Source: an uncultured Alphaproteobacteria bacterium
GTDB lineage: Bacteria; Pseudomonadota; Alphaproteobacteria; HIMB59; GCA-002718135
Direction: 5' to 3'
Assembly: GCA_902597795.1 (NCBI GenBank)
Contig: CACJZA010000007.1
Coordinates: 4,733 to 68,732 of the forward strand
Length of the DNA stretch: 64,000 nucleotides
The notes under the pieces: generated by a model
Told to the model about the DNA's origin: nothing
Databases searched by the model: none
Seen by the model: the letters and a program-made list of their open reading frames with translations, nothing else
Program-made: the position numbers and the translations under genes
In this document: piece after piece, positions 2,378 to 47,668 of the stretch
Layout of the letters: every line of letters begins with the position of its first letter
Numbering within the stretch: the first letter of the stretch is position 1

Positions 2378-2383
2378 AGTAAT

Positions 2384-4966: not shown

Positions 4967-4989
4967 TTATTATTTTAACTTAAAAGATA

Positions 4990-7052: not shown

Positions 7053-7054
7053 TT

Positions 7055-9983: not shown

Positions 9984-10001
9984 TTTTTAATTTAAAAAAT
10001 G

Positions 10002-10027: not shown

Positions 10028-10037
10028 TAATTATAAA

Positions 10038-11597: not shown

Positions 11598-11733
11598 ACA
11601 ACCTCCATAAGAAAATATGATTAATGAAGGAATAAAAGAAATTTAGAATATTTGAAATAGTAAATAAGTCATATCAGTGATGACTATATGTCATGTATTA
11701 TTTAATAGTATTGCAAAAAATTATTAATAATTA

Positions 11734-13606: not shown

Positions 13607-13608
13607 AT

Positions 13609-16785: not shown

Positions 16786-16886
16786 AAAATCGTATCTAAA
16801 TTGTTTTTATAATTTAAGAAATAGATAATTTATCATTTTGGTGGTGATTATTTTGCAATATACGAGTATTTTTTAGATTACATTTT

Positions 16887-16908
16887 ATCAACACTGTAAT
16901 GACAATTT
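16887..16908 (+). promoter_or_regulatory. Candidate operator shared with the LysR divergent promoter
   Basis: ATCAAcactGTAATGACAATTT matches 43054..43075 (ATCAAttttGTGATGACAATTT) at 18 of 22 positions with identical spacing. It lies about 40 nt upstream of the GTG start at 16950. Confidence 0.4.
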
Positions 16909-16949
16909 TGTTATTCTTTATTTAAATTAAACAAGATATTTCTCTCAAT

Positions 16950-18688: not shown

Positions 18689-18692
18689 TTTT

Positions 18693-19748: not shown

Positions 19749-19752
19749 TAAA

Positions 19753-23327: not shown

Positions 23328-24748
23328 TTAAAAATGGAAAAGATAAATTTGTTGGAATTCAAATAAGTCCGATTTCATTTATTGATGAAGGAATTGATAA
23401 TGTATTAGATACATTACAAAAACGTGTTGGTGTAAATGTTCTGCTAATTGGGACTGTTTCATGGCTAGGATTAAAATCGGGAAGATCAGTGTCTTGGGAA
23501 ATAGATGGTTGGCCAGATCATGGAATTCCTGAACCATTTTCAATGAAGGGTGGTGCATATTTTGATCCAGATCCTAAATTTTATAATAAAACTTTCATAA
23601 AAAATTTTAAAGCCCAAGACAAAGAAATGAAAAATAAAGATATTTTAAAAATGGTTATTCCTAAAGCAAGGGAAAGAGGAATGAAAATTTTTATTGAATT
23701 AATGGAACCCTTTTTCAATTATGCAGGTCATGGATCTGCCACCGGAGTAGATATTCCAAATTTAGTTCAATGTATGGAAATAGATGTTTTTGGAAAAATT
23801 GGTAAATCACCTTCCACAAGTAATAAAAATTATAGAAATTGGATCTTATCAATGATCGAAGATCAAGTTGCAAATTATGATATTGATGGTGTTATGTGGT
23901 GCAATGAAAGATATTCACCTCTTGATCAATTATTTCAAGGAAATGAGCCTGGAGACTTTTCTGAAGATTTTTTAATAGAAGCTAAAACTCATAATTTAAA
24001 TATTGAAAAAATTAGATCCTCACTTTTGAAATTATATGAATTCTTTCAAGAAACTTTAAATGGAAAGAACTTTGTTGATGGAAACTTAATTGAATTTTTT
24101 AGGATTTTATTTGATAAACCAGAAATTTTAGAGTGGGAAAAATTTTGGCTTAAAAGGAACAAAGATTTAGACAAAGAAATTTATGGTTTAGTAAAATGGA
24201 TAAAACCTAATTTATCTTTTGGGTTAAATGTATGGAATAGAAATCATTTTAATATTATTAGAAAAATACAGTGGCCTTGGAAAGAACAGGTAAGTTATTC
24301 TGATTGGGTAAAACCTATAACTTATCAGCATCAATCAGGTGAAATATTTCATAGAGAAATAAATATATTTGGAAAAACAATCTTAAATGAATTATCTAAT
24401 TCTGAGTTAGTTTCATCTTTTTCTAAAATTTTAGGAATTAATGAAACTAACTTAGACAATCTTATAGAAAGAGGATTAGATCCAGATACATATATTTATA
24501 CTCAATGTGCAGATGCAGTCAGGGGTGTTGATGGTGGCTCCAAAGTATATATGGGCATTGGTATCGATGCACCAAGATCATCAAAAGAACAAGCAATCTG
24601 TACACCAGATATTGCATATAGATCGGTTTTAGCAACTTATAAAGCTGGAGGAGAAGGGATAGTGTTGTCACCAAATTATGCATCTATGAAACTTTCAAAT
24701 CTTGATGGAGTTGCAAAAGCTTTAAAAGAACTGAAAATTTTTGAGTGA
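23324..24748 (+). CDS. Hypothetical protein (no family recognised)
   Basis: 474-aa ORF, translationally coupled at both ends (4-nt overlaps). The alternating beta/alpha-like pattern (KIFIELMEP, DGVMWCNERYSP) hints at a TIM-barrel hydrolase-like fold, but I cannot assign it. Confidence 0.7.
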   Translation: MIKNGKDKFVGIQISPISFIDEGIDNVLDTLQKRVGVNVLLIGTVSWLGLKSGRSVSWEIDGWPDHGIPEPFSMKGGAYFDPDPKFYNKTFIKNFKAQDKEMKNKDILKMVIPKARERGMKIFIELMEPFFNYAGHGSATGVDIPNLVQCMEIDVFGKIGKSPSTSNKNYRNWILSMIEDQVANYDIDGVMWCNERYSPLDQLFQGNEPGDFSEDFLIEAKTHNLNIEKIRSSLLKLYEFFQETLNGKNFVDGNLIEFFRILFDKPEILEWEKFWLKRNKDLDKEIYGLVKWIKPNLSFGLNVWNRNHFNIIRKIQWPWKEQVSYSDWVKPITYQHQSGEIFHREINIFGKTILNELSNSELVSSFSKILGINETNLDNLIERGLDPDTYIYTQCADAVRGVDGGSKVYMGIGIDAPRSSKEQAICTPDIAYRSVLATYKAGGEGIVLSPNYASMKLSNLDGVAKALKELKIFE

Positions 24749-26143: not shown

Positions 26144-27133
26144 ATGAATAGTGAAAACTTATTAAGTATAAAGAATTTAAAAACACATTTTACTGTTGGT
26201 GAATCAGTTGTTAAAGCTGTTGATGGTGTTTCTTTTAATTTAGAAGCAGGAAAAACTTTTGCGATAGTTGGGGAATCAGGCTCAGGTAAATCTATTACAG
26301 CATTATCTATTATGGGCTTGTTACCGAATAACTTAGCACAAACTGAACGAGGTGAAATATTATTTGATAATAAAAACTTAATTGATCTTGAAGAAAATGA
26401 AATGAGAAAAATTAGAGGAAATAGAATCTCTATGATTTTTCAAGAACCTATGACAAGCCTAAATCCAGTTTATGATTTATCTTTTCAGATTTCAGAAACA
26501 ATTATTCTTCACCAAAAGAAAAGCAAAGAACAAGCAAGAAAAATTGCTATTGAAATGCTAGATCTTGTAGGCATACCTGAACCTCAAAAAAGAATTGACT
26601 CCTACCCTCATGAATTATCTGGTGGAATGAGACAAAGGGCAATGATCGCGATGGCTTTAAGTTGTAATCCTAAAATTTTGATTGCTGATGAACCTACAAC
26701 TGCTCTTGATGTTACAATACAAGCTCAAATTATAGACCTAATGCAAGAACTACAAAAAAAACTTGGGATGTCGATTATATTTATTACTCATGATCTTGGA
26801 GTTGTTTCTGAAATATCAGATCATGTAATGGTAATGTATTTGGGTAATGTTATGGAAATTGCAGAAACATCAGAATTATTTAATAATCCGCTGCATTCAT
26901 ACACTAAATCATTAATTGATATAGCGCCTCAAATTTCGGATGAAAAAAGAGAAATTAAGGTACTAAGAGGTGAGATTCCTAGCCCAACAAACCCACCTTC
27001 TGGTTGTGTTTTTAGGACTAGATGTCCTAATCCTGGTATAGGCTGTAAAGGTGGAGATATTGAGATGGGTTTGATTGAAGCCAAACCAGGACACTGGGTT
27101 GATAGATGTTGTTATGAGTGTAATCAAACGTGA
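26144..27133 (+). CDS. Dpp/Opp-type ABC transporter ATP-binding protein (DppD-like)
   Basis: 329 aa with Walker A GESGSGKS, signature LSGGMRQR and Walker B ILIADEPT. Has a Cys-rich C-terminal tail. Confidence 0.9.
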
Positions 27134-28095
27134 TTAGAGTAGAAAATATAAAAAAATATTTCCCAATAAAAGATGGATTTTTTAACAATAAATCGGGAGA
27201 TGTAAAAGCAGTTGAAAACGTTAGCTTTGAAATTCCTGAAGGAGAAATTCTTGGTCTTGTCGGAGAATCTGGATCCGGCAAAAGCACTCTCGGAAGAGCA
27301 ATCATTAGATTAATTGAGCCTACTCAGGGAAATATTTTTTATAAAAATAAGAATATTACAAAATTATCAGATAGTGAAATGAGAAAATTACGAAAAGATT
27401 TTCAAATAATTTTTCAAGATCCATATGCTAGCTTAGATCCTAGAAAAAAAATTTATGATATTATATCTCAAGGTCTCAAAGTTCATGAAAAAATGGATAA
27501 AAATTCTATTAATCAAAAGGTAGAAGAGATAATTCAAGATGTTGGTTTGCAAAAAGAACATTTAAATAGGTATCCTCATGAATTTTCGGGGGGACAGAGA
27601 CAGCGCATTGGTATAGCTAGAGCGTTAGTTCTTAATCCAAAATTCATAATAGCTGATGAACCAGTGTCAGCTTTAGATGTAACCATTCAAGCCCAAATTC
27701 TAAATTTAATTTTAGAACTTAAAAAAAAGTATTCTTTAACAATTCTATTTATTTCTCATGATCTTTCAGTAATAAATCAAATAGCTGATAGAGTTATGGT
27801 GATGTATTTAGGTCATATAGTAGAAGTTGCAAATACAAGTAATTTATTCTCAAATCCTCAACATCCTTATACTAGATCTCTTATTGAAACTGCTCCACAA
27901 ATATTTAGAAAAAATAAAAAGAAAACTCTACTTAAAGGTGATATTCCCAGTCCTATTAATCCTCCTTCGGGTTGTGTTTTTCGAACACGATGTCCAAACC
28001 CTGGTATAGATTGTAAAGGAGGTAATATTGAAATGGGCTTAATTGAAGTAGAGCCAGGACATTGGGTCGACCAGTGTTGTGCAAATTGTAATTAG
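27130..28095 (+). CDS. Dpp/Opp-type ABC transporter ATP-binding protein (DppF-like)
   Basis: 321 aa with [16 protein letters not shown] and IIADEPVS motifs. Has a Cys-rich C-terminal tail and a 4-nt overlap with the upstream ATPase gene. Confidence 0.9.
27932..28095 (+). repeat. Copy 1 of a perfect 164-bp direct repeat (3' end of the ATPase gene)
   Basis: I compared it base by base with 39216..39379 and found it identical from TTAAAGGTGATATTCCC through TGTAATTAG (the stop codon). Flanks diverge immediately on both sides. Confidence 0.95.
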
Positions 28096-28116
28096 TTAAA
28101 TTACATTTTTAAGAAT

Positions 28117-29016
28117 ATGAATAAAAAACTATTTGTAATTTTGTTATCTTTATTAGGCACTGGTACAGCAGCAATTATGGTTTCAGGAATAAAACTACTT
28201 TCACAAGATTTAAACCCTTTCATGATTGCATTTTACAGATGTCTATTTGGGGTTATTATTATGTTACCTTTTATGATTTATAATTACCCAGAAGCTTGGA
28301 AAACACATAACATAAAACTACAGTTTGTAAGATCTGCGATTAATGTTTATTCAATGATAAGCTGGTTTACAGCTATAGGAACATTACAACTAGAAAAAGC
28401 AGCAGCTATAGGTTTTACTACTCCACTATTTACTACCATCCTCGCAATTATTTTTTTAGGTGAAGTAATTAGAATTCAAAGAATTACTGCACTAATTGTT
28501 GGCTTTATAGGAATTTTGGTTGTTATAAGGCCTGGGTATATACCTTTTGAGAGTGGAGCTTTATGGCTTCTATCAGCAGCAATAACTTTTTCAATAGTAA
28601 TAATAATTGTAAAAAAACTTACTGAAAAGGATTCAAGTTTAACGACTGCATTTTACCAAATGGCTTTCATGGTTCCTCCGACATTTTTTATTGCATTGTT
28701 CTTTTGGGAAAGTATTAATATAGATCAATTTTTATTATTTATATTTGTTGCTATCGCGGGATTTATAACACAGTTCAGTTTTGCTCAATGTTTAAAAATG
28801 GCTGAAACAACATTTATAATGCCAATACAATTTACAAAACTAATTTGGCTGTCTTTAATTGGATATTTCTTTTTTATGGAAGTGCCTGATATTTGGACAT
28901 GGATAGGAGCTTCTATAATATTCTCATCAATTCTCTTTATAGCTTATAGAGAAGCTATTAATAAGAATAGCTTACTTAAAACTAAAAAAGTTGATAAACT
29001 AATTTCAAATTATTGA
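28117..29016 (+). CDS. DMT-superfamily (EamA-like) transporter
   Basis: 299 aa, about 10 predicted TM helices, with two EamA-like halves. Confidence 0.85.
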   Translation: MNKKLFVILLSLLGTGTAAIMVSGIKLLSQDLNPFMIAFYRCLFGVIIMLPFMIYNYPEAWKTHNIKLQFVRSAINVYSMISWFTAIGTLQLEKAAAIGFTTPLFTTILAIIFLGEVIRIQRITALIVGFIGILVVIRPGYIPFESGALWLLSAAITFSIVIIIVKKLTEKDSSLTTAFYQMAFMVPPTFFIALFFWESINIDQFLLFIFVAIAGFITQFSFAQCLKMAETTFIMPIQFTKLIWLSLIGYFFFMEVPDIWTWIGASIIFSSILFIAYREAINKNSLLKTKKVDKLISNY

Positions 29017-30008
29017 TGAAGTATGGTTTACTAGGAATCGGCCAAGCAGGTTTAAGGCATTTTGAGGCTTTTAAAAAAATTAGAAATTTAAAATTAATTG
29101 GATTTACAGAATATGATTTGAAAAAAGCTAATAAATTTAAAAAATTAAACAATATAGAGCATTTCAATAATTTTAATGAACTTATAAAGTTAAAACCTGA
29201 TTTTATAGTTATTGCATTGCCACATTTTTTGAGAATAGAACCAATATTAGAGTGTTGTAAAAATAAGATAAATCTTTTGATAGAAAAACCACTAGTTTTG
29301 AATAGTAATGAGCTAAGTTCTATAAAAAAATATATATCAAAAAAAAATATTACACATACAATTAGTTTTGTTCATCGATACAGAAAAGAAGTATTTAATG
29401 CTTACAAACTGATACAGAATTCAAAAATCGGGAAAATAAAATTTATTTCTGAAACAATGATTTCTCAAAAAAACAAATCTTTACCAAAATGGATAGATGT
29501 TAAGAAATATTCTGGTGGAGGTGTTTTACTATACAATGCGATTCATAGTTTAGATAAGATTTCATACTTAGCTAAATCTAAAATTCATGAGGTTTATGCA
29601 AAAAAAATAAATATAAACAACAAAATAGATGTTGAAGATATAATTTCAATTTCAATGAAGTTTAAAAATGGAATAACTGCTCAGTTAATAGCAACTTTTG
29701 TGCCATATGAGACTACTCCAAAATGGGAAACAAAAATATTTGGTACGTCTGGACAAATAGATATTAATATTAGAAAAGGATTAGAGCTAAGATCAAAAAA
29801 TAAAATAACAACATATGATTATTCAAAATATTACAATAAGTATGGTCTTAACTATAATTTTTATACTCAAGCAAAATCATATGTTGATGCACTAAAGAAA
29901 AAAACCCAACCTTTTATCAAAATACAAGATGGGATAAATTCTGTCTTAGTTGTTGATGCAATTTATAAGTCGATAAATATAAATAAAGTTATTAAATTAA
30001 AATACTAG
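29013..30008 (+). CDS. Gfo/Idh/MocA-family oxidoreductase
   Basis: 331 aa with a Rossmann N-terminus (KYGLLGIGQAG) and an EKP motif (IEKPLVLN). Confidence 0.85.
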   Translation: MMKYGLLGIGQAGLRHFEAFKKIRNLKLIGFTEYDLKKANKFKKLNNIEHFNNFNELIKLKPDFIVIALPHFLRIEPILECCKNKINLLIEKPLVLNSNELSSIKKYISKKNITHTISFVHRYRKEVFNAYKLIQNSKIGKIKFISETMISQKNKSLPKWIDVKKYSGGGVLLYNAIHSLDKISYLAKSKIHEVYAKKININNKIDVEDIISISMKFKNGITAQLIATFVPYETTPKWETKIFGTSGQIDINIRKGLELRSKNKITTYDYSKYYNKYGLNYNFYTQAKSYVDALKKKTQPFIKIQDGINSVLVVDAIYKSININKVIKLKY

Positions 30009-31105
30009 TTAATTAGATTTAGTAGATGATTTGATAAAGTTTCAATTTCATTTTTTGTCATATATTGATGACATGGAAGATTTAGAATCTCAGAATTAAC
30101 TTTTTCTGTAATTTTTAAATCAAAATTATGTTTAAAATTTTTATAACATTCATCTTGATGATTAGGGGGTAAATAATTAAGTTTTACTAATGAATTTATA
30201 GAATTTAATTTATCATATATTTTATTTCTATTTTTTATTCTTATCGGAAAATTTCTCCAGGAGGATTTTGCATCCTTAAGAGTTTTTTGAAATTTTATTT
30301 TTTTAGAGAATAAAATTTCTTTGTACAGTTCTGCGTTATAATTTCTAATTTGTATATATTCATCAAGTTTTTCTAATCTAATATTTAGAATTGCGGCACT
30401 TATTGTACTTAATTTTGAGTTATAACCTATTGTATAAGACTTTACTGGCCATTTTTTTGGCCTCTCTTTTCTTCCATAATCACGAAGCTGAAGTAACTGA
30501 AGATACAAGTTTTTACTGTTAGTTGTAATAATACCACCTGGGCCTATACCATCTAATATTTTACCTGGATTAGTACTAAAAACTGTCAAATCACTTAATG
30601 AACCAATTTTTTTATTTTTGTACTCTGCACCAGTTGCTAAGCACGCATCTTCAATAATTTTTAATTTATGTTTTTTTGCAATAGATGATATTTTCGACAT
30701 ATTACATGGATTTCCAAATAAATGCACAGGTAAGATTGCCCTGGTATTCTTTGTTATATTTTTTTCGATTTTGTTTTCATCAATATTTAAAGAATCTTCA
30801 TTAATATCAACCCATTTAATTTTTGCTCCAACAAGAGTAATTGCGTGACTTGTTGGAATATCAGAATTAGATACAGTTATAACTTCATCATTTTTTTTTA
30901 AGTCTAAAGTTTTAAGGGCTAAAAGTAACCCCATAGATCCAGAAGATACAGTTACACAATATTTAACATTACAATATTTTTTAAAATTCTCTTCAAATTT
31001 CTCTACCTCCGCACCCATTTCCAAAACACCCTTGCTAAGGACATTTTCAATTTTTGATAAAATAATTTTTTTATCAGCTAGAAAATGTTTTTTTAGGTCG
31101 TACAT
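30005..31105 (-). CDS. DegT/DnrJ/EryC1/StrS-family PLP-dependent (sugar) aminotransferase
   Basis: 366 aa with family-typical layout and an active-site Lys region (VFSTNPGKILDGIGPGGII). Its stop overlaps the convergent Gfo gene stop within CTAG. Confidence 0.85.
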   Translation of the reverse strand: MYDLKKHFLADKKIILSKIENVLSKGVLEMGAEVEKFEENFKKYCNVKYCVTVSSGSMGLLLALKTLDLKKNDEVITVSNSDIPTSHAITLVGAKIKWVDINEDSLNIDENKIEKNITKNTRAILPVHLFGNPCNMSKISSIAKKHKLKIIEDACLATGAEYKNKKIGSLSDLTVFSTNPGKILDGIGPGGIITTNSKNLYLQLLQLRDYGRKERPKKWPVKSYTIGYNSKLSTISAAILNIRLEKLDEYIQIRNYNAELYKEILFSKKIKFQKTLKDAKSSWRNFPIRIKNRNKIYDKLNSINSLVKLNYLPPNHQDECYKNFKHNFDLKITEKVNSEILNLPCHQYMTKNEIETLSNHLLNLIN

Positions 31106-31244
31106 ATTATTTTAGTAAATACTATTTTTTAGTTTTTTTAAAGTATTACATAAAGGTAATTCATTTAAAGTGTATACAAAATGTCAACAATAACTATACA
31201 ATTTGTTTATTTATTTATTTTTGAATTTTAATTAACTTACAAAT

Positions 31245-32009
31245 ATGATTTTAAAAGATAAAATATCAGTAATAACTGGTGGAGCGACCGGAATTGGAAA
31301 AGCTACAGTAGAAACATTTGCACTACAGGGTGCAACAGTTATTTTTTGTGATGTAAACAAAAATGAGGGTGAAAAAACTCAAAAGGAGCTTCATAAAAAA
31401 GGTCTGAAAACTTATTTTGTAAAAGCTGATGTATCAAAGGAAAAAGATATTATTAATTTATACAAATATGTAACTAAAAATTTTAAAACTTTAGATACTG
31501 TTTTTAATAATGCTGGTATAGAACAAGCAGTTACTCCATCACATAAATTAAATACAAAAATATTTGAAAAAATTATTGATATAAATCTTAAGGGAATATT
31601 TTTATCTTGTAAGCATGCCTTACCTATTTTGTTAAAAAATAAAAAAGGTTCAATTGTGAATAATAGTTCAATAAGTGCTTTTGCGAATGTAGGTGGCAAT
31701 CTTAGTTATGCAGCTTCAAAAGGAGGAGTGATGTCACTCACAAGAGTCTTAGCTATTGAGTATGCAAAAAATAATATAAGAGTAAATGCTGTTTGTCCCG
31801 GAGTAATTGATACTCCTATGAATGAAAGAAATTTAAAAAAAACAAAAAATAAAAAAGAGCTTATTAGTAAATGGAAAACGATTACACCATTAGGAAGAGT
31901 TGCAAGTCCATATGAATTAGCCCAAACTGTTCTTTTTCTTTCATCTGATATGTCATCTTTTATAACAGGCGTAGGTCTTTTAGTGGATGGTGGTAGAGCT
32001 GCAACATAA
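31245..32009 (+). CDS. Classical SDR (3-oxoacyl-ACP reductase/glucose dehydrogenase-like)
   Basis: 254 aa with TGGATGIGKA, NNAG and YAASKGG motifs. Confidence 0.9.
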   Translation: MILKDKISVITGGATGIGKATVETFALQGATVIFCDVNKNEGEKTQKELHKKGLKTYFVKADVSKEKDIINLYKYVTKNFKTLDTVFNNAGIEQAVTPSHKLNTKIFEKIIDINLKGIFLSCKHALPILLKNKKGSIVNNSSISAFANVGGNLSYAASKGGVMSLTRVLAIEYAKNNIRVNAVCPGVIDTPMNERNLKKTKNKKELISKWKTITPLGRVASPYELAQTVLFLSSDMSSFITGVGLLVDGGRAAT

Positions 32010-32733
32010 TACTTTTAAAAATTTAAAAGTTTTTATTACAGGCACTTCCAGTGGGATTGGACATGCAGTATCCAAAGCATATTTAGAGAGAGGTTCGATT
32101 GTATATGGTATTGATAACAAAAATAATAAAAGTTTAAATTTACAATTTAAAAATTTTGAATTTCATAATTGTAATGTTCAGAACTACAAAAAGATGAGTT
32201 TAATTGTAAAAAAAATATTAAAAAAATCTAAAAGAATTGATGTCCTTATTAATTGTGCAGGTATTATTGATTTTAAAAGTATTGAAAAAAGTACAATTGA
32301 TTTTTGGAAAAAAATTATCGATGTAAATTTAACTGGTACTTTTATAAGCTGTAAACTCATTGCTCCTTCTATGAAAAAAAATAAAAAAGGTTCCATTATA
32401 AATGTATCTAGCAGAGCTGCTAAGTTTGGTGGATTAGATGAAACTGCATACTGTGCCTCAAAATTTGGCGTTGAAGGATTAAGTAGGTCTCTATATGAAG
32501 AATGCAAAAAATATAATATATTTGTAAATACAATAACTCCTGGAACTCCTATTAAAACTTCTATGAGTAAAAAAACTTATTCGGATGAAAAGAGAAAAAT
32601 ATGGAAAGATCCATATTTAATTTCACCAGCGTTTCTTCATTTGGGAGTACAAACAAAAAGTGTTATAAATAATAAATATATTGATGCTTGGCAATTAACA
32701 AAAAAAATTAAACATAAATATAAATTGAATTAA
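31987..32733 (+). CDS. SDR, paralogue of 6342..7052
   Basis: 248 aa with TGTSSGIGHA and YCASKFG motifs. ATG 31987 overlaps the upstream SDR by 23 nt, and the only alternative start before the cofactor motif is an adjacent GTG at 31990, which still overlaps the upstream gene. Confidence 0.8.
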   Translation: MVVELQHNTFKNLKVFITGTSSGIGHAVSKAYLERGSIVYGIDNKNNKSLNLQFKNFEFHNCNVQNYKKMSLIVKKILKKSKRIDVLINCAGIIDFKSIEKSTIDFWKKIIDVNLTGTFISCKLIAPSMKKNKKGSIINVSSRAAKFGGLDETAYCASKFGVEGLSRSLYEECKKYNIFVNTITPGTPIKTSMSKKTYSDEKRKIWKDPYLISPAFLHLGVQTKSVINNKYIDAWQLTKKIKHKYKLN

Positions 32734-32740
32734 TATAGAT

Positions 32741-33979
32741 ATGAGAAAAATAATTAAAACCAAAAAACTAATAAATGGTGTAAATAAAAAAATTTTAGAA
32801 AACAAATGTATCATAATTGAAAATGGAAAAATTACAAAAGTTTTAGATTTAAAAAATTTTAAAGATAAAAAAGGTGACAAGGTTTATAATTTTAATAAAG
32901 AAGTGGTTATGCCTGGCATGGTTGATGTCCATGTTCATTTGGCATTCTCAGGAATAACAAATAATAGATCATTTAGAGCAGAGTCTGCTGATCTTGATTA
33001 TGGAGCTCAAGCTCTAAGAGGTTATGCATTTGCATTAGATCATCTAAATTATGGATTCACAAGTATTAGAGATATGAATGCTCCAGGAAATGTTGCAATT
33101 AATATTAGAAACATGATTAAAAATAATAAATTAAAAGGACCTAACATTTTAGCCTGTGGACTAGGATTGTCAGTAACCGGTGGCCATATGGATCAACCAG
33201 GATGGGGGAGTCATGTAAATTTTAAAGATATGACTTATCCATGTGATGGACCAGATGAATTTATTAAAGGTGTTAGAACTCAATTAAAAGCAGGTGCTGA
33301 TTTTATTAAAACAAATTTATGTGTAAGTTCAACTTATGATCTAAAAAAACCTTATAAACAAGAGATGAGTAACGAAGAAATTGAAGCAGTCGCAAAAATT
33401 ACAAAAATGTTAAATATTAAAGTAGCATCTCATACTTCTGGTGGTTCTGCTATTACAAAAGCAGTTGAATGTGGATTGCATTCAGTTGAACATGGGCATT
33501 GGCTTGATAATAAAACTGTTGATTTGATGAAAAAAAATAATACTTTTTATGTTCCTACACTTTTAGTCAATGAAAGAAATTTTGATTTTAAAGAGAACGA
33601 AAAATTTAAATCTTCTAAAAATTGGAAGTGGTTAGAATTATCTAGAGAGGCAAAATGGGTTTCTTTAAAAAAAGCAATTAAATCTAATATTAAAATAGCA
33701 ACTGGAACAGATGCAGGTTTTATGCTGCCACATGGAGAAATGAACTACAGAGAATTAGAATACTTGGTTCAAGGAGGTATGACAAATATGGAAGCAATAA
33801 TATCTGCAACTAGAATTGGTGGTGAACTTTTAGGAATAAATGTGGGTACTATTGAAGAAGGTCAAAAAGCAGATATCCTTGTTATAAAAGGTGATCCTTC
33901 AAAAAATATAAAAATTTTAAGCGATAGAAAAAATATAAAAGTTTTTAAAGACGGTAAGCTATTAGAAAATAGTATTTAA
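32741..33979 (+). CDS. Metal-dependent amidohydrolase
   Basis: 412 aa with MVDVHVHLAFSG, ASHT, VEHG and GTDAG motifs. Paralogue of 20935..22170. Confidence 0.85.
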   Translation: MRKIIKTKKLINGVNKKILENKCIIIENGKITKVLDLKNFKDKKGDKVYNFNKEVVMPGMVDVHVHLAFSGITNNRSFRAESADLDYGAQALRGYAFALDHLNYGFTSIRDMNAPGNVAINIRNMIKNNKLKGPNILACGLGLSVTGGHMDQPGWGSHVNFKDMTYPCDGPDEFIKGVRTQLKAGADFIKTNLCVSSTYDLKKPYKQEMSNEEIEAVAKITKMLNIKVASHTSGGSAITKAVECGLHSVEHGHWLDNKTVDLMKKNNTFYVPTLLVNERNFDFKENEKFKSSKNWKWLELSREAKWVSLKKAIKSNIKIATGTDAGFMLPHGEMNYRELEYLVQGGMTNMEAIISATRIGGELLGINVGTIEEGQKADILVIKGDPSKNIKILSDRKNIKVFKDGKLLENSI

Positions 33980-34037
33980 TTCTAATAAATTTTTTCAAAA
34001 ACCTTGTAAAATAGGGTTTTTTGAGTGATGTCTAAAA

Positions 34038-34054
34038 AGCATTACAAAAATGCT
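34038..34054 (+). promoter_or_regulatory. Inverted repeat upstream of an SBP operon (candidate operator)
   Basis: AGCATT-acaaa-AATGCT: perfect 6-bp arms with a 5-nt spacer, about 70 nt upstream of ATG 34123. Confidence 0.3.
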
Positions 34055-34122
34055 AATTTTAAACTTTTTGTAATTTCTAAATGATTTAAACTATTTCTAA
34101 TTTTCTTAACAAAGGAGATAAT

Positions 34123-35706
34123 ATGAGAATATTATTAAAAATTGCTCTTGGTATAACTTTTATATTCTCAAGTCTTTCTTTTATTAATACTGCAAACGCA
34201 TTGGATATTGTTTTTGCAGAAGATAGACCAGATTTGAGAACACTAGATCCAAGAATAACACAGTCAAGACATGAAGAGATGTTAATTGTAAATATGTTTG
34301 ATCAATTAATATCAGCTGACTCAGAAGGAAATATATATCCTGGTCTTGCAACATCATGGGATGTCTCTAGTGATGGATTAGAATATACATTCAGCTTAAG
34401 AGATGATGTAAGCTTCCATGATGGAACAAAATTTAATGCTGCAGCTGTTAAGGCAACATTTGATAGCATTGTAGATCCAGAAACTGGATCACAAGGTGCA
34501 GTAGATATTTTAGGGCCTTATAAGGAAACAATTGTTATAGACGATTTTACTGCAAAAGTAGTTTTTGAAAGACGTTATGGATCTGCAATAACTGCATTTA
34601 CAGAAACTGAGTTATCAATTGTTAGTCCAACAGCTCTAAACAAACTAGGTAATGAAGGATTTGGAATGGCTCCTGTAGGTACTGGACCATTTATGTTTAA
34701 AAATTGGGAAGCTAACAAAAAAGTCGAGTTAGTTAGAAATCCTGATTATAACTGGGCTCCTGAATATATGGATGGGAGTGGCCCTTCTCAAGTTGCAAAT
34801 TTAACATATAGATTGATTAAAGATACTAGTACTAGAGTTGCTGCTCTAGAGTCTGGTGAAGTTGATATCGCAGAATTAGTACCTCCACTTGATATGCGTA
34901 GATTTGATTCTAGTGGAGATCTGAGTACTGTTACAGGAACGGTTTCTGGTTTACCTTACTCAGCTTTCTTGAATACAACTACTGGTGTCTTCCAAGATGT
35001 TAATGTCAGAAAAGCATTTTTCCATTCACTTGATAGAGTAAAAATGACAAGTGATTTATTTTTTGGATATGCTGAAGCAGCATTTGGTCCAATTAGTAGC
35101 TCAACACCAAGTTATTGGAGTGGTAATGAAGATTATTATCCTTACAACCCTGAAGGTGCAGCTGCTTTATTAGATGAAGCAGGTTGGAAAATGGGTTCTG
35201 ATGGTGTTAGAGAAAAAAATGGTGAAAAACTTACTGTATTTTTTCCATGTTTACTAGAACCTGACACTTGTGTTGCAATACAAGGCTATGCAAACAAGGT
35301 AGGATTTGATGTTAATGTTGAAGTAGTAATGAAAGCAAGACAAGATGAATTAATCTTTGCTAACGGTTACGATATGCTAGTTATTAGATGGGTTTCTCTA
35401 GATCCAGGAGTATTAATTATTCCTTTCCACTCTAGAAATATTCCACAACCAGGTAAATTCAAATTTAACTGGGCTAGATATGCTAATGCAGAACTTGACC
35501 AACTTCTTGAAGATGCTGAAAGTGCAGAAACACAGGAAGTTAAAGATGATCTATATATGCAAATTCAAAAACATATAATGGATCAAGCAATTTTTCTTGC
35601 AATTCACGATCAAGTACAAACAGTTGCATACAATCCTGATTTAGAGGGTGTGAGATTTGCCAATGGTAATTGGCAAATGCGTATGTATGATGTACGAAAA
35701 AAATAA
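34123..35706 (+). CDS. ABC transporter substrate-binding protein, family 5
   Basis: 527 aa with a signal peptide (MRILLKIALGITFIFSSLSFINTANA). AAGGAG Shine-Dalgarno at 34112..34117. Confidence 0.9.
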   Translation: MRILLKIALGITFIFSSLSFINTANALDIVFAEDRPDLRTLDPRITQSRHEEMLIVNMFDQLISADSEGNIYPGLATSWDVSSDGLEYTFSLRDDVSFHDGTKFNAAAVKATFDSIVDPETGSQGAVDILGPYKETIVIDDFTAKVVFERRYGSAITAFTETELSIVSPTALNKLGNEGFGMAPVGTGPFMFKNWEANKKVELVRNPDYNWAPEYMDGSGPSQVANLTYRLIKDTSTRVAALESGEVDIAELVPPLDMRRFDSSGDLSTVTGTVSGLPYSAFLNTTTGVFQDVNVRKAFFHSLDRVKMTSDLFFGYAEAAFGPISSSTPSYWSGNEDYYPYNPEGAAALLDEAGWKMGSDGVREKNGEKLTVFFPCLLEPDTCVAIQGYANKVGFDVNVEVVMKARQDELIFANGYDMLVIRWVSLDPGVLIIPFHSRNIPQPGKFKFNWARYANAELDQLLEDAESAETQEVKDDLYMQIQKHIMDQAIFLAIHDQVQTVAYNPDLEGVRFANGNWQMRMYDVRKK

Positions 35707-35720
35707 TTAATTGATTAAAT

Positions 35721-35744
35721 TTAGCCACCTTTAAAGGTGGCTAA
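35721..35744 (+). promoter_or_regulatory. Intercistronic hairpin between the SBP and permease genes
   Basis: TTAGCCACC-tttaaa-GGTGGCTAA: perfect 9-bp stem, 15 nt after the SBP stop and 7 nt before the permease ATG. No downstream T-tract, so an mRNA-stabilising or attenuating structure is more likely than a full terminator. Confidence 0.6.
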
Positions 35745-35750
35745 AAAATT

Positions 35751-36680
35751 ATGAATTTTTTTATAAAAAAACTCCTTATTGTAATACCCACACTGTATAT
35801 TGCTTGGACAGTAGTTTTTGTAACACTAAATATTATTCCTGGAGATCCAGTAAATTTAATGCTTGGCGGACGACCCGCATCAGATGAAGTAAGAGAAAAT
35901 GTTAGGAAGAATTTAGGTTTAGATAAACCTGTTTTTGAGAGATATACTTCATTCTTAATTAATGCAACTAAGGGTGATTTAGGAAAATCATATCTCACTA
36001 GGCAACCTGTAACAACAATGATTAAAGAAAACATGATGCCTACAATAGAACTTTCTATAGGAGGTTTAATATTTGGAGTTTTTTTTGGTGTCTTTTTTGG
36101 AATATTTGCTGGAACCAAACCTAATTCAATGCGTGATACTTTTTCAATGATTATTGCTCTTTGTGGCATTTCTCTTCCTAGTTTTTGGATAGGGATGATG
36201 CTGATTTATATATTTGGTACAACTTTGGGATGGGTTCCAATTGTAGGTGAGGGCTTTGTTTCTTTAATTTTACCATCTATTACAGTTGGCTTATTTTTTG
36301 CTGGAGGAATGGCAAGATTAACAAGATCAAGTTTAGTAGATGTATTAAATCAAGATTATATAAGAACAGCACGTTCAAAAGGAATATCCAAATATAGAAT
36401 AGTATTAAGACATTCATTAAGAAATGCAATGATACCTCCAGTTACATTACTTGGTATACAATTTGGATTACTTATTACGGGAGCTGTAATTACAGAAGAA
36501 GTATTTGCAAGACCAGGACTTGGTCAATTATTGCTTCAAGCTATTTTGGCAAAAGATATACCATTAGTTCAAGCGCTAGTTGTTTATATGACAGCAGTGT
36601 ATATTTTTTTAAATTTGATAGTAGATTTTACTTATGGAATTATTGATCCAAGAATCAGACTAGAAAGAAATAGAGGGTAA
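35751..36680 (+). CDS. Dpp/Opp-type ABC permease (DppB-like)
   Basis: 309 aa with an EAA loop (DYIRTARSKGIS). Confidence 0.9.
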   Translation: MNFFIKKLLIVIPTLYIAWTVVFVTLNIIPGDPVNLMLGGRPASDEVRENVRKNLGLDKPVFERYTSFLINATKGDLGKSYLTRQPVTTMIKENMMPTIELSIGGLIFGVFFGVFFGIFAGTKPNSMRDTFSMIIALCGISLPSFWIGMMLIYIFGTTLGWVPIVGEGFVSLILPSITVGLFFAGGMARLTRSSLVDVLNQDYIRTARSKGISKYRIVLRHSLRNAMIPPVTLLGIQFGLLITGAVITEEVFARPGLGQLLLQAILAKDIPLVQALVVYMTAVYIFLNLIVDFTYGIIDPRIRLERNRG

Positions 36681-37534
36681 TGAAAAATTTTTCAATTATT
36701 TTAAAAAGATTTTTATTGAATAAAGGATCAGCTTTTGGCGGAATATTTCTTTTAATTATAATTATTGGAGCTATTTTTGCACCATTGATTGCTCCATATA
36801 ATTGGAATGAAGTTGATACTGGGCCAAGATTAGCTCCACCTAGTTGGGATTTTTTATTTGGCACAGATATTCATGGCAGAGATGTATTTTCTAGAATTGT
36901 TTATGGAGCGCGATATTCTTTAAGTGTGGGTGTTATTTCAGTTTTATTTGGTATCGTTGCTGGTAGTATTTTTGGAATAACAATAGCATATATCGGTGGT
37001 AGAGTTGATATCATTGGTTCAAGAGTAATTGATGTTATGTTTGGTTTCCCATCCTTCCTTTTATCTCTTTTAGTTGTTGCAATAATTGGTGTTGGTTTAT
37101 GGAATGTCGTATTCGCAGTAGGATTGGCAAGTATTCCACATTTTGCAAGAATTATTCGTTCAGCGGCATTACAAGTTAAAGAGCAACCTTATATTGAAGC
37201 ATGTGTAAATATGGGTTTTGGTAAAATACGAATAATGTTTAATCATATTCTTCCAAATATATTTCCAATAATTATAGTTATTGCAACTATGGATTTAGGT
37301 GGTGCTATAATTTCTATAGCATCCTTAAGTTTTCTTGGATTAGGTGCACAACCTCCTGAACCTGAATGGGGTGCCATGTTGAGTTCAGGAAGAGAGTATA
37401 TGCGATATGCGCCCTGGACTATGATTTATCCAGGACTTTTTTTATTTTTAACTGTTATGTCGGTTAACTTACTAGGTGATAGGCTAAGTATTGCACTTGA
37501 TGCGAGACAATCAGTAGATAAAGGTAAAGTGTAG
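36680..37534 (+). CDS. Dpp/Opp-type ABC permease (DppC-like)
   Basis: 284 aa with an EAA region (PYIEACVNMGF). TAATG junction with the upstream permease. Confidence 0.9.
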   Translation: MKNFSIILKRFLLNKGSAFGGIFLLIIIIGAIFAPLIAPYNWNEVDTGPRLAPPSWDFLFGTDIHGRDVFSRIVYGARYSLSVGVISVLFGIVAGSIFGITIAYIGGRVDIIGSRVIDVMFGFPSFLLSLLVVAIIGVGLWNVVFAVGLASIPHFARIIRSAALQVKEQPYIEACVNMGFGKIRIMFNHILPNIFPIIIVIATMDLGGAIISIASLSFLGLGAQPPEPEWGAMLSSGREYMRYAPWTMIYPGLFLFLTVMSVNLLGDRLSIALDARQSVDKGKV

Positions 37535-37540
37535 ATAGAT

Positions 37541-39379
37541 ATGGTAGAAATTTTGAATGTTTCTAATTTAAGTACTGCCTTTCAATCTGATTATGGATCA
37601 AAACAAGCTTTAAAAAATATTTCCTTTAAGATTAATGAAGGAGAAGTTCTTGCTTTAGTTGGAGAATCAGGTTCAGGTAAAACTGTTACTAGCCTCTCCA
37701 TTATGGGCCTTCTACCCAACAATGCCTATATTCAAGAAGGTAATATAAATTTAATTGATAAAAAAAATAATCAAGTAAATATTTTAAAACTTACTGATGA
37801 AAAACATAACTTGATAAGAGGAAATGATATTTCAATGGTTTTCCAAGAACCAATGACATGTCTTAATCCAACTATGACTATTGGTGATCAAATAGTTGAA
37901 GTAATTTTAAATCACAAAAAAATCTCTAAAACTAAAGCATTTAAAGAAATGATTGAATTATTGGGTCTAGTTGAAATACCTGATCCAACTCAAAGAGCAA
38001 GGGAGTATCCACATCAACTCTCTGGTGGAATGAGACAAAGAGTGATGATTTCAATTGCTCTAGCATGTACTCCTAAACTTATAATTGCTGATGAGCCTAC
38101 ATCTGCATTAGATGTAACCATTCAAGCGCAATTATTACAATTATTAATGAAGTTAAAAAATTCAATTGTATCTAAAACTAGTATTTTATTTATTACACAT
38201 GACCTTGGTATTGTTCGGGAATTAGCTGATAGAGTTATTGTTATGTATCAAGGTGAAATTGTAGAAGAAGGTAAGGTTAAAGATGTATTTGATAATCCTA
38301 AACATTCGTACACTAGAAATCTTATTCAATCATTACCCGAATTTAAATTGGAAGAACGTAAATTAACTAAAAAAGATGACAATAAACAAACTAAAGTTGA
38401 TGATAATGAAATAATACTAAAAATAGAAAATTTATTTAAAGAGTTCCCTGTAGAAAAAGGTTTTTTTAAGGAATCAAATGAAACTGTAAAAGCTGTTCAG
38501 AATATTTCATTGAATGTAAAGAAAAATGAAGTTTTAGGTTTAGTTGGAGAATCAGGTTCAGGTAAATCAACTTTAGGTAAATCTATAATTAAATTATTAC
38601 AACCCTCTAGAGGAAAAATTTATTTTAATAATGAAAATATTTCAGAATATTCAAATAAACAAATGATTAAAATAAGACAAAAAATGCAAATGATTTTTCA
38701 AGATCCTTTTGCAAGTTTAAATCCAAGAAAAAATATTTTAGATACATTGATTGAACCTATACTTGTACATGATTTAATGAAAAAAAATGAAGCTATTAAT
38801 TATATTAAAGAAATAATTAATGATGTAGGATTGCCTATAGAGAGTCTAAGAAGATTTCCTCATGAATTTTCTGGAGGACAAAGACAGAGGATTGGTATTG
38901 CAAGGGCTTTAGTACTTAAGCCAGAATTTATTGTAGCTGATGAACCTGTCTCTGCTTTAGATGTTTCTATTCAGGCGCAGGTTTTAAACTTATTAGAAAA
39001 ACTGAAAAAAACTTATAATTTAACAATGATTTTTATTTCACATGATTTAAGCGTAATTGAATTTTTTTGTGATAAAGTTGCAGTTATGTATTTGGGTCAT
39101 GTTGTAGAGATAGCACCAGTATCAAAGTTATTTAACAGTCCTAAACATTCCTATACTCGAGCACTTTTATCTGCAGTACCAAAAGTAAAAGGGAAAGATA
39201 AAGAAAAAATATTAATTAAAGGTGATATTCCCAGTCCTATTAATCCTCCTTCGGGTTGTGTTTTTCGAACACGATGTCCAAACCCTGGTATAGATTGTAA
39301 AGGAGGTAATATTGAAATGGGCTTAATTGAAGTAGAGCCAGGACATTGGGTCGACCAGTGTTGTGCAAATTGTAATTAG
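37541..39379 (+). CDS. Fused two-domain Dpp/Opp-type ABC ATPase (DppD-DppF fusion)
   Basis: 612 aa with two Walker A motifs ([16 protein letters not shown]), two signature motifs ([16 protein letters not shown]) and a Lys/Asp-rich linker. The last 54 codons plus the stop codon are nucleotide-identical to the end of 27130..28095. Confidence 0.9.
   Translation: MVEILNVSNLSTAFQSDYGSKQALKNISFKINEGEVLALVGESGSGKTVTSLSIMGLLPNNAYIQEGNINLIDKKNNQVNILKLTDEKHNLIRGNDISMVFQEPMTCLNPTMTIGDQIVEVILNHKKISKTKAFKEMIELLGLVEIPDPTQRAREYPHQLSGGMRQRVMISIALACTPKLIIADEPTSALDVTIQAQLLQLLMKLKNSIVSKTSILFITHDLGIVRELADRVIVMYQGEIVEEGKVKDVFDNPKHSYTRNLIQSLPEFKLEERKLTKKDDNKQTKVDDNEIILKIENLFKEFPVEKGFFKESNETVKAVQNISLNVKKNEVLGLVGESGSGKSTLGKSIIKLLQPSRGKIYFNNENISEYSNKQMIKIRQKMQMIFQDPFASLNPRKNILDTLIEPILVHDLMKKNEAINYIKEIINDVGLPIESLRRFPHEFSGGQRQRIGIARALVLKPEFIVADEPVSALDVSIQAQVLNLLEKLKKTYNLTMIFISHDLSVIEFFCDKVAVMYLGHVVEIAPVSKLFNSPKHSYTRALLSAVPKVKGKDKEKILIKGDIPSPINPPSGCVFRTRCPNPGIDCKGGNIEMGLIEVEPGHWVDQCCANCN
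39216..39379 (+). repeat. Copy 2 of the perfect 164-bp direct repeat
   Basis: Identical to 27932..28095. The copy-to-copy period is 11,284 bp. Confidence 0.95.
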
Positions 39380-40623
39380 ATATAATTATCCTTAATAATA
39401 CCTTTTAAAACTTTAAAAACTTTTTCAAAATTTTTAATACTCATATATTCTTTTGGATTGTGACTCCCATTCTTATTTCTTATAAATAACATTAAAGAAG
39501 GTATGCCATGATTTGCAAAAACACTAGCATCGTGCCCTGCTCCACTTGCCATAGTTTCAAATTTCATTGAAATCATTTTGGAATAGATTTGAAACTTTTT
39601 TATTAATTTTTTATCCATTAATGCTGGTTCTGAATTTGTTTCATTGCCTAAAAAGAATTTTGTATTTGTTTGTTTTTCAATTAATTTAATTTTTTTGATT
39701 AAAATTTTTTTGGTATAATCAAGTGTATTTTTTGAATTACTTCTTACGTCTATACAAAAATTAACAAGACCAGAGCTTTTTGCAAAAGAATGCTCCTTAT
39801 TATCAGTAAAAAATTGACCAAAGGTTATAACTAAATCTTTATTTTTTTTAAGTTGTGCTTTCCAAAAAATATTCATTTCAATTACTAAATTGGATACTGC
39901 AACAACGGAATCTTTCCTATAATCATAAGGAGTCGCTCCAGAATGTAAATATTCGCCTTTACAAAAAGCATCTCTGAATCTAAAACTTCCTCTTATTCCT
40001 GTAACTATACCTAGGGGTATTTTCTTTTTTTCAAGCACTGGACCTTGTTCTATATGAGGTTCTATAAAAAATTTAAAATTTTTAATATCGAATTTAATTT
40101 GTTTTTTAGATACTTTCTTAGCATTAAAACCTGATTTGTTTATATGATATGAAAGAGATTTTTTAGTATCTGATCTTTTTAAAGAATCTAATAGTTTCTT
40201 GTCAAATTTTCCTAATGCAATTTTACTTCCGATATAACTGTATGGAAACCAACAACTTTCCTCTCCTCTTATACCCATAACTGATATTGAATATTTTGGT
40301 GTTATGTTATTCTCAAAAAAGAATTTTATTAATACTAGACCCATTATCACACCAGTAAGTCCATCAAAGTTTCCACCATGTTTTTGACTATCTAGATGTG
40401 ATCCAATGACAATTTTTTTTTTCAATTTTCCAGAGTAGGTGGCTAGAAAGTTACCTCCATAATCAATAATAATATCTTTGGTAAATTTATTTGCTTCTTT
40501 TATTAAAAAATCATGTGTTAAATTTTCACCCTTTCCATAAGTATCTCTTATTACACCAGGATTAGCAAAAGAGATTTTTTTTACAGAATCAAAAAGATAT
40601 TTTGTGTACTGAATATCATTCAT
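39376..40623 (-). CDS. M20-family amidase (allantoate amidohydrolase/N-carbamoyl-L-amino-acid hydrolase type)
   Basis: 415 aa with GSHLDSQKHGGNFDGLTGV, the diagnostic motif of the AllC/AmaB subgroup. Confidence 0.8.
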   Translation of the reverse strand: MNDIQYTKYLFDSVKKISFANPGVIRDTYGKGENLTHDFLIKEANKFTKDIIIDYGGNFLATYSGKLKKKIVIGSHLDSQKHGGNFDGLTGVIMGLVLIKFFFENNITPKYSISVMGIRGEESCWFPYSYIGSKIALGKFDKKLLDSLKRSDTKKSLSYHINKSGFNAKKVSKKQIKFDIKNFKFFIEPHIEQGPVLEKKKIPLGIVTGIRGSFRFRDAFCKGEYLHSGATPYDYRKDSVVAVSNLVIEMNIFWKAQLKKNKDLVITFGQFFTDNKEHSFAKSSGLVNFCIDVRSNSKNTLDYTKKILIKKIKLIEKQTNTKFFLGNETNSEPALMDKKLIKKFQIYSKMISMKFETMASGAGHDASVFANHGIPSLMLFIRNKNGSHNPKEYMSIKNFEKVFKVLKGIIKDNYI

Positions 40624-43100: not shown

Positions 43101-44012
43101 ATGTTATCAATTGAGTACAGATATTTTTATCAATCTGCGCTTGATAGCTCTATTAGAAAAGCTTCTCAAAATTTAAATATAAATTCATCAGCTATAGTAA
43201 GACAAATTCAAAAATTAGAAGACAGACTTCAAACAAAATTATTTATAAGAAATGCTAGAGGATTAGAATTAACAAATGAAGGAAAATTATTATTTGATCA
43301 TCTAAAAGTTCAAAATGAGACTAATCATAATTTCTTATCAGATTTAAAACAAAATAAAACTTCGACTTCTGGAGAAATAAATATTTCTACTGGTGAAACA
43401 TTTGCTGTTCAATTTTTGTCACCTATTATATCAAAATTTAGAAAAGAATATCCAGACATAAAAATAAAGATATCTTCAAGACAGCCTGATACAATTTTAG
43501 ACAATCTAATTACAAATAAAACTGATTTTGGAATAACATTTACAAAAGATTTACCTAAAACATTAAAGGTACTTTACCTGTATAATTTTCCTATGGGGGT
43601 TTTGTGCTCTTCTAAGCATATTCTGTCAAATAAATCAGAAATTCTTTTGGAGGATTGTTTCAAATTTCCACTAATTTTTCATCCAGGGACAGTGACTTTT
43701 TGGAATTCTATACAAAGAGATGTAGGTGAAAAATTATATTCCATCAATCCTAATCTTATTTCAAACTCTTTTTCTTTTATAAAAAATTATCTAATTGAAG
43801 ATAACAATTATTTAACTTTTTTTACAAGTGCGGGCTCAGTTAAAGAAATAGAAAGTAAAAAATTAGTATTTAAAAAAGTTAATCACAAAATATTTTTAGA
43901 TAATAAAGTTGGAATTATTGTTTCAAAGAAACAAAAGTTAAAGAAGTTTACTGAAGACTTTATAAATTTAGTAAAAAATGAATTTGATAATTCATTAGAT
44001 TTGACTAAATAA
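43101..44012 (+). CDS. LysR-family transcriptional regulator
   Basis: The HTH region YFYQSALDSSIRKASQNLNINSSAIVRQIQKLEDRLQTKLFIRNARGLELT begins right after the M at 43101. The track start at 43035 adds 22 non-conserved residues and would leave only a 26-bp divergent spacer. Confidence 0.8.
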   Translation: MLSIEYRYFYQSALDSSIRKASQNLNINSSAIVRQIQKLEDRLQTKLFIRNARGLELTNEGKLLFDHLKVQNETNHNFLSDLKQNKTSTSGEINISTGETFAVQFLSPIISKFRKEYPDIKIKISSRQPDTILDNLITNKTDFGITFTKDLPKTLKVLYLYNFPMGVLCSSKHILSNKSEILLEDCFKFPLIFHPGTVTFWNSIQRDVGEKLYSINPNLISNSFSFIKNYLIEDNNYLTFFTSAGSVKEIESKKLVFKKVNHKIFLDNKVGIIVSKKQKLKKFTEDFINLVKNEFDNSLDLTK

Positions 44013-46643: not shown

Positions 46644-46645
46644 TT

Positions 46646-47623: not shown

Positions 47624-47630
47624 GCTTTAA

Positions 47631-47656
47631 TTTCTGGCCAGATTACTGGCCAGAAA
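47631..47656 (-). promoter_or_regulatory. Intercistronic GC-rich hairpin after the SBP gene
   Basis: TTTCTGGCCAG-atta-CTGGCCAGAAA: perfect 11-bp stem between the SBP stop (47669) and the permease start (47623). Confidence 0.6.
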
Positions 47657-47668
47657 ATATAAAATTTA

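Follow-up and report, generated by a model that had tools for sequence, protein, structure and literature searches.

Probable gene conversion of a 164-bp segment encoding a Cys-rich tail between two DppF/OppF-type ATPase genes of an uncultured marine alphaproteobacterium

How have two diverged genes on one chromosome come to end in the same 164 bp? The question is raised by a 64,000-nucleotide (nt) stretch of DNA, called the window here, from an uncultured alphaproteobacterium of the HIMB59 lineage (assembly GCA_902597795.1, contig CACJZA010000007.1, positions 4,733 to 68,732). The repeat forms the 3' ends of two ATP-binding cassette (ABC) transporter ATPase genes. The first, F1 (27130..28095, + strand), encodes a 321-amino-acid (aa) ATPase of the DppF/OppF type with ABC_tran and oligo_HPY domains. 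The second, D2F2 (37541..39379, + strand), encodes the fused 612-aa ATPase of a transporter that we call ABC system 2. It has two nucleotide-binding domains (NBDs), with two ABC_tran and two oligo_HPY stretches, and its F2 half begins at about position 38414. A preliminary description of the window had left two origins of the repeat to choose between, gene conversion or the single-crossover (Campbell-type) integration of a circular DNA, and had viewed the gene module between the copies as a likely gain/loss polymorphism. The analyses described below indicate that the repeat very probably arose by ectopic (interlocus) gene conversion between the two DppF/OppF-type paralogs, which lie 11.3 kb apart in direct orientation.

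RESULTS

The repeat is a mosaic tract within two diverged genes

Direct comparison of 27932..28095 with 39216..39379 gave 164 identical nucleotides out of 164, with 11,284 nt from start to start; the base-for-base repeat and the size of the bracketed unit had thus been described correctly. Each copy lies on the + strand and covers the last 54 codons and the TAG stop of its gene, which in F1 correspond to residues 268 to 321 and overlap the oligo_HPY domain (residues 231 to 295). The identity could not be extended by even 1 base on either side. Its 3' limit is the shared TAG stop, beyond which the next 60 nt match at 27 positions, i.e., at chance level, in keeping with the earlier observation that the flanks diverge at once. 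Upstream of the tail, a gapless alignment of F1 with F2 gave 66% nt and 57% aa identity (the latter had been put at about 60%), and the longest identical stretch was 15 nt. Synonymous divergence along the two ATPase genes, which the preliminary description had proposed as a check, dropped from a Nei-Gojobori (NG86) dS of 0.96 upstream (0.7 to 1.26 in blocks of 54 codons) to 0 in the last 54 codons. The two copies are therefore a 164-bp mosaic tract inside which synonymous divergence collapses. At 66% identity, the naive probability of a 164-nt run is ~5e-30. A third, older copy of the tail is found in D1 (26968-27102), the gene directly before F1, and is 78.5% identical to the repeat at the nucleotide level.

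Purifying selection and codon bias acting on a critical domain might produce such identity without recombination. No part of these proteins is more conserved than the tail, to the extent that even D1 retains the identity given above, and an 18-residue motif ([18 protein letters not shown]) is the same in all tail copies. However, all 54 third positions are identical between the two copies, whereas upstream the codon is also the same for 60% of the residues that F1 and F2 have in common; at this rate, 54 identical codons out of 54 would be expected with P ~1e-12, even with all 54 residues constrained. In addition, orthologous tails in relatives differ by 20 to 29% although their protein motifs are preserved, and there are synonymous variants, private to a single genome, that occur in both of its copies. 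Because of these synonymous-site data, selection alone is refuted as the source of the identity, and we give it practically no chance.

The two-copy structure recurs in independent assemblies

An identical repeat in one assembly could also be an artefact, with the tail copy or the join made by a chimeric contig or by a repeat that was collapsed and then copied. The window was compared with ~25 independent single-cell, short-read, and long-read assemblies or contigs from the same marine population. The exact F1 protein is present in many marine assemblies, among them Tara scaffolds, nanopore/pilon contigs named after the Great Barrier Reef, and the single-cell assembly GCA_902587565.1. The single-cell relatives AG-913-B05, AG-913-F06, AG-892-I02, and AG-898-L16 are 97 to 99% identical (nt) to the window's F2 gene and 90 to 99% identical in F1 where F1 is present; a farther set of relatives (AG-447-L18, AG-435-K07, and AG-457-I08) is at ~77% nt identity. 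None of these genomes is that of the window. Look-ups of the D2F2, amidohydrolase, and M20 proteins of the window by exact sequence gave no match, and it was F1, the permease, and AstE that led to the relatives. Every contig that reaches the region keeps the gene order F1-EamA...D2F2-M20. This layout was observed in four other single-cell genomes (L011, L013, L014, and L172), in Tara short-read scaffolds, and in at least 7 nanopore/pilon reef contigs (L002-L004, L171, L173, and L177-L180), which were built from reads that easily span 164 bp. In four marine metagenomes, moreover, the unitigs (k = 31) had ~2x depth within the repeat, and loose ends bearing the F2-side flanks occurred exactly at 27932 and 28095. 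Since many assemblies have the same layout and the unitigs show twofold depth and both flank contexts, the two-copy structure is not the artefact of one assembly. The tail is also needed for the full length of both genes, and every orthologue has a tail at this position.

The repeat does disturb assemblers. Two contigs from long-read/pilon and short-read assemblies, L002 (at the contig end) and L182 (5633-5760), terminate inside it, and because they do so the 164-bp repeat is an assembly breakpoint; a third sequence, the scaffold L176 described below, loops at it. No sequencing run contained all words of the window, the best share being 0.78, and no Nanopore or PacBio run containing the locus was found among the runs searched. 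Weighed against the recurrence of the layout in independent data, these points leave an artefactual repeat highly improbable.

The scaffold L176 (Tara scaffold_1271, 1-19847) begins with an F1 gene of the type B allele described below, followed by the module and by D2F2 with its tail; it then continues into a type A F1/EamA intergenic region, EamA, and the module again. The junction is at 12383-12590; over 7.3 kb, the first and second copies of the module show 14 mismatches and 2 gaps, for an identity of 99.78%. Since L176 joins type B to type A exactly at the repeat, we read it as an assembler loop, which probably ran through two co-occurring strains; a real tandem duplication or a circle is the less likely reading. 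The self-match of the scaffold appeared to start within the ATPase gene, as it would in a true unequal crossover at that place. This candidate was rejected, because the BLAST alignment had been extended through sequence of 70% identity and the real switch is at the tail.

The tails of both loci share one set of polymorphisms

In the 300 nt upstream of the tract, the sequences fell into clean F1 and F2 clades with 62 to 68% identity between clades, whereas the tails of the close group were 94 to 100% identical whatever the locus. The tract and its flanks thus give conflicting groupings, the upstream sequences by locus and the tails irrespective of it. A gapless estimate of nucleotide diversity for the upstream region was discarded because of indels in the nanopore contigs. 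Within single-cell genomes, the F1 and F2 tails differ by 0 nt in the window and in L014, by 2 nt in L013, and by 5 nt in L172, relative to a mean of 5.2 nt between genomes, so that paralogous tails within a genome are closer than orthologous tails between genomes. Within long-read contigs, the two tails differ by 3 to 7 nt. No fixed difference between F1 and F2 was found in the tract, and 12 of its 17 polymorphic sites segregate in both loci. Variants found in one genome alone were present in both of its copies, for example, in the window (27969G and 28041A), L014 (CCT/GGA/GAT-CAA), and L172 (28023C). The 5' breakpoint (27932/39216) is the same in all converted genomes.

The shared polymorphisms, the lack of fixed differences, and the private variants found in both copies point to recurrent gene conversion. 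These sequence patterns strongly support the view that tail identity reflects concerted evolution by recurrent, rather than single, conversion. Combined with the population pattern, the single 5' breakpoint suggests one founding conversion, followed by recurrent conversion within the island of identity.

Other genomes carry tails that are partly converted or not converted. The F1 gene of L011 is a third allele that is 93% identical upstream; its tail matches F2 over roughly 90 nt from its start before departing from it (87% overall). The type B allele of D1-F1 was found in L091, L111, and L175 and as the first F gene of L176. Upstream of the tail, its F1 gene has 83% identity to that of the window, and its tail has ~80% identity to that of F2; the genes around type B alleles are 98 to 100% identical to those of the window. 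In L017, which is a relative at 77% nt identity and has the gene order of the window, F1 and F2 share 71% identity in their tails.

Two further observations were made on these alleles. D1-F1 is hypervariable in the population: its alleles fall into three or more classes, namely, those like the window, type B (83% nt identity), and L011 (93%), as seen when window 26144-28095 was compared with L091 1079-3028, L175, L111, and L011 3407-5346. Given that the D1-F1 alleles vary while the neighboring genes are 98 to 100% identical, the pattern suggests allelic replacement by recombination centered on D1-F1. In L011 (AG-913-B05), an extra T is present in a homologous poly-T run of both F1 (4436-4442; T7 versus T6) and the F2 half (15717-15724; T8 versus T7). 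The run encodes Gly-Phe-Phe, and the extra T brings a TAA into frame in each gene; the insertions may represent a coincident homopolymer error or true slippage at a site common to the two paralogs.

A probable founding conversion and later conversions within the island

The following course of events very probably accounts for these patterns. A founding homologous-recombination event would have copied the Cys-rich C-terminal-coding segment from one gene to the other and created a 164-bp island of identity. The 3' limit of this island would be the stop codon, where homology ends, and its 5' limit the fixed breakpoint at 27932/39216. The island would be long enough for RecA-type recombination and the 66%-identical DNA upstream of it would not, so that later conversions would be confined to the island and would re-homogenize the tails. 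A new mutation in either copy would then be either lost or copied across, and for this reason the two loci would have one pool of polymorphisms. The window shows the freshly homogenized state, with 0 differences. RecA-type recombination is the pathway that we infer for these conversions.

The first transfer was likelier from F2 to F1 than the reverse, given that the F2 tails are the same in type A and type B genomes and that the tail loop ([10 protein letters not shown]) resembles the F2 loops of outgroups (PNPGIECKGG and PNPGIECTGG), not their F1 loops (PHASKDNKEA and PNPCEGCKNG).

Several points weigh against gene conversion or against parts of this reconstruction. The last codons (NCN*) look more F1-like, and few outgroups stand behind the direction of transfer. 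Assembler merging of near-identical copies could slightly inflate the 100% identity in single-cell assemblies; the 2 and 5 differences retained in L013 and L172, respectively, indicate that assemblers are able to preserve differences between the copies. Pilon-polished nanopore contigs may hold mis-polished repeat bases, and the true within-genome pairs come from the window and four single-cell genomes only. Finally, conversion is deduced from sequence patterns, with no event directly observed.

The repeats do not delimit a conserved unit

Under the other origin that had been proposed, a circle carrying the module and one ATPase tail would have recombined into a resident ATPase tail, duplicating the 164 bp and leaving an excisable unit. 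The direct repeats do enclose a self-contained gene set, the content of which the preliminary description had listed correctly as judged by Pfam, without mention of the two-domain fusion in the ATPase. Its geometry stands as well, in that an exchange between the two copies would remove the module without damage to F1. In L176, F2 upstream sequence is followed by the tail, the EamA flank, and a second module copy, as would be expected of a circle or a tandem duplication. However, the first F gene of this scaffold is of type B, the intergenic region after its second tail is of type A, and the module copies differ at 14 sites, which fits a loop through two strains. Moreover, L017 (tails 71% identical) and the type B carriers L091 and L175 (~80%) have the gene order of the window without identical tails, and the module must therefore have lain between both genes before the tails became identical.

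The deeper relatives also argue against integration. Their module genes are contiguous and interleaved with genes that lie beyond the second repeat in the window (Glyox-AstE-D2-F2-PDA-M20, on one strand). In L096, L100, L106, L107, L112, L105, and L109, a LysR gene and the binding-protein and permease genes form one continuous block with those from EamA to the amidohydrolase, and in these relatives the gene before EamA is a homologue of the window gene at 3815-4966, not D1/F1. Since the cluster of these relatives passes the second repeat and occurs without F1, the repeats do not delimit a conserved unit. When every gene between 20935 and 43008 was scanned against Pfam, neither an integrase or transposase nor another mobility gene was found, which agrees with the preliminary description of a bracketed unit free of both.

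No empty site was present in the ~25 contigs, a limited sampling that includes 10 of 23 contigs chosen by F1 alone. Look-ups from the F1 side and from the M20 side found no F1 joined to the M20 flank among these contigs: every F1 is followed by EamA, every M20 is preceded by D2F2, and M20 adjoins D2F2 in each contig that covers the M20 gene. The proposed search for an empty-site junction in related genomes thus gave 0 of ~25 contigs, and the suggestion that the module is a likely gain/loss polymorphism was not borne out. Of the two origins offered for the repeat, gene conversion is favored by the tail and polymorphism patterns, and Campbell integration is contradicted by L017 and the type B carriers; we consider the latter very unlikely. 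Taken together, all of the sequence patterns by which interlocus conversion is recognized were observed at this locus, and those of an integrative element were sought and were absent, a circular junction being seen in L176 only.

The arrangement of the D2F2 region also varies. In distant relatives, D2 and F2 are separate genes ~170 nt apart (L096 17209-19067, L100, L106, and L107), with Glyox-AstE upstream and PDA-M20 downstream of them on the same strand. In the lineage of the window, D2 and F2 are fused (612 aa), and Glyox-AstE-PDA-M20 are inverted and lie downstream.

Gene conversion would be compatible with a further process, namely, RecA-dependent unequal exchange between the repeats that causes rare deletions or tandem amplifications of the 11.3-kb module. 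A perfect direct repeat of 164 bp exceeds the shortest length that RecA recombination generally requires, and L176 has a junction of the duplication type. In contrast, the deletion junction was present in no contig, albeit in a weak test, since short reads and k = 31 unitigs are too short for the repeat, and a chimera of two strains is the better explanation for L176. We regard such exchange as an unlikely, though not negligible, addition to conversion.

The repeat encodes a Cys-rich tail

Residues 268 to 321 of F1, which the tract encodes, include Cys282, Cys288, Cys295, Cys316/317, and Cys320. In Escherichia coli DppF, the ligands of a [4Fe-4S] cluster are C293, C299, C306, and C323, and this cluster is required for the stability of the DppBCDF complex (PMC12136057). 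The F1 residues C282, C288, C295, and C316/317 are spaced 6, 7, and 21 to 22 positions apart and all lie within the converted tract; the spacing of the first three is that of the first DppF ligands. Given that the spacing is as in DppF and that all of these Cys residues are in the tract, the converted piece would correspond to the whole presumed Fe-S domain, for which cluster binding is predicted by analogy.

The nearest Protein Data Bank (PDB) sequences to the ATPases are Mycobacterium tuberculosis Rv1281c (a fused OppD), E. coli OppF, DppF, OppD, and DppD, and 4fwi. F1 and D2F2 have the same arrangement as E. coli DppD/DppF and PDB entries 8z1v, 8z21, 4fwi, and 8j5q, i.e., ABC_tran, oligo_HPY, and a C-x5-C-x6-C...C tail. 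The fused two-NBD form of D2F2 is likewise known from Rv1281c. However, the F half of D2F2 has the full tail, whereas the second NBD of Rv1281c stops at about residue 605 without it, as judged by alignment.

The tail loops of D1 and F1 co-vary by lineage. In the window, [10 protein letters not shown] occurs with [10 protein letters not shown]; the counterparts in L017 are NASSNEKKES in D1 and HASKDNKEA in F1. Both D1 and F1 of L017 are without the third Cys of the C-x5-C-x6-C motif, which F2 retains. This co-variation suggests that all three tails have co-adapted or took part in older exchanges.

It is also conceivable that the identity is selected, with the Fe-S tail serving as a shared interface, and that the repeat allows reversible amplification or deletion of the catabolic/transport module in the wild, L176 being a real tandem duplication. 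F1 (with D1) and D2F2 would then have to carry the same C-terminal domain, and selection would favor each conversion that re-synchronizes them. The reasons might be a common docking or redox-sensing partner or the swapping of ATPase subunits between neighboring transporters. That the tail loops of D1, F1, and F2 co-vary by lineage is compatible with a shared interface but is not proof of one, and we hold this combined proposal to be improbable. Neutral identity and selected identity are both readings that we infer.

Genes around the repeat

The genes from D1 to M20 were assigned by Pfam. D1 (26144..27133, +) encodes a 329-aa ATPase of the DppD/OppD type, the presumed partner of F1. After F1 follow genes for an EamA transporter (28117-29016, +), a Gfo/Idh/MocA protein (29013-30008, +), a DegT aminotransferase (30005-31105, -), two short-chain dehydrogenases/reductases (SDRs; 31245-32009 and 31987-32733, both +), and an amidohydrolase (32741-33979, +). 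The synteny from EamA to the amidohydrolase (28117..33979) is kept down to ~65 to 70% aa identity. ABC system 2 comes next, with a family-5 solute-binding protein (34123-35706, +) and two permeases (35751-36680 and 36680-37534, both +), and D2F2 is the last gene of this operon. An M20 peptidase gene (39376..40623, -) is convergent with D2F2, and its 3' end forms the unique flank past the second repeat copy.

These genes are part of a ~45-kb region that is rich in peptidases, amidohydrolases, and aminotransferases and contains three family-5 ABC systems; heme-synthesis genes, endonuclease III, and RmuC flank it. The GC content of the window is ~30%, and tRNA and Rfam scans of the window gave no matches.

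The family-5 binding protein and two permeases of system 1 (8122-11597, -; permeases at 8122-9983) are without an adjacent ATPase, and D1/F1 (26144-28095, +) are without an adjacent permease and lie 14.5 kb from the system 1 genes on the opposite strand. D1/F1 and the system 1 proteins probably work together as a split ABC system. A third fused two-NBD ATPase (585 aa; 44005-45762, -) belongs to the third family-5 ABC system (44005-49243). Its C-terminal oligo_HPY domain is shortened (profile positions 2 to 29 of 65), and with this truncation it is without the Cys-rich tail common to D1, F1, and F2.

The operon that ends with D1-F1 starts with two neighboring DUF4438 genes (16950-18688, +), which are followed by genes for Ldh_2, an M24/creatinase-like peptidase, amidohydrolases, and an aminotransferase; it looks like a catabolic cluster for a nitrogen-containing substrate. 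Two open reading frames had no Pfam match, at 23324-24748 (+, 474 aa) and 60094-61119 (-, 341 aa). The former lies between aminotransferase and amidohydrolase genes and is conserved in relatives, with 85% aa identity in L017.

DISCUSSION

What makes the case unusually clean is that a domain-sized tract can be seen in a series of states within a single wild population of an uncultured marine bacterium: unconverted, half-converted, with 2 to 7 differences, and with 0 differences. The converted piece encodes a Cys-rich domain whose E. coli counterpart holds the Fe-S cluster needed for Dpp stability, and its uniformity might hypothetically be selected. The locus also carries a caution, in that perfect repeats on both sides of a block of genes are not necessarily the mark of a mobile element. 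In addition, the repeat breaks or loops metagenome assemblies (L002, L182, and L176) and can yield false tandem duplications.

Like the att-like repeats of genomic islands and integrative elements, the repeats described here are direct, surround a multigene block, and would permit its clean deletion. However, neither a recombinase nor an empty site accompanies them, and carriers of the block without the repeat exist. Moreover, what is repeated is not a duplicated target but the end of the coding sequence of two functional paralogs.

A closer parallel is offered by the population-genetic theory of duplicated genes, which reportedly covers partial (mosaic) interlocus conversion between paralogs. 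The abrupt switch in divergence, the polymorphisms shared between loci, and the raised within-locus diversity in the tract are features that the present locus has in common with it. The differences are that a natural bacterial population is concerned, seen through single-cell genomes and metagenomes, and that the tract boundary is the end of homology at the stop codon.

Among prokaryotic paralogs, tufA/tufB and others have been catalogued as cases in which concerted evolution is long-lasting and recurrent (PMC6053082); the text of that catalogue makes no mention of ABC transporter ATPases. As with tufA/tufB, dispersed paralogs on one chromosome would here be homogenized by recurrent RecA-type conversion, with greater similarity within than between genomes. 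In contrast to tufA/tufB, homogenization is confined to a 164-bp 3' segment encoding one domain, while the rest of the genes stands at a dS of ~1. It is also young and lineage restricted, being absent from a relative at 77% nt identity and from one allele class of the same population. The process is thus well known, and the two ATPase genes are another instance of interlocus conversion and concerted evolution, one that is well documented by data from a natural population.

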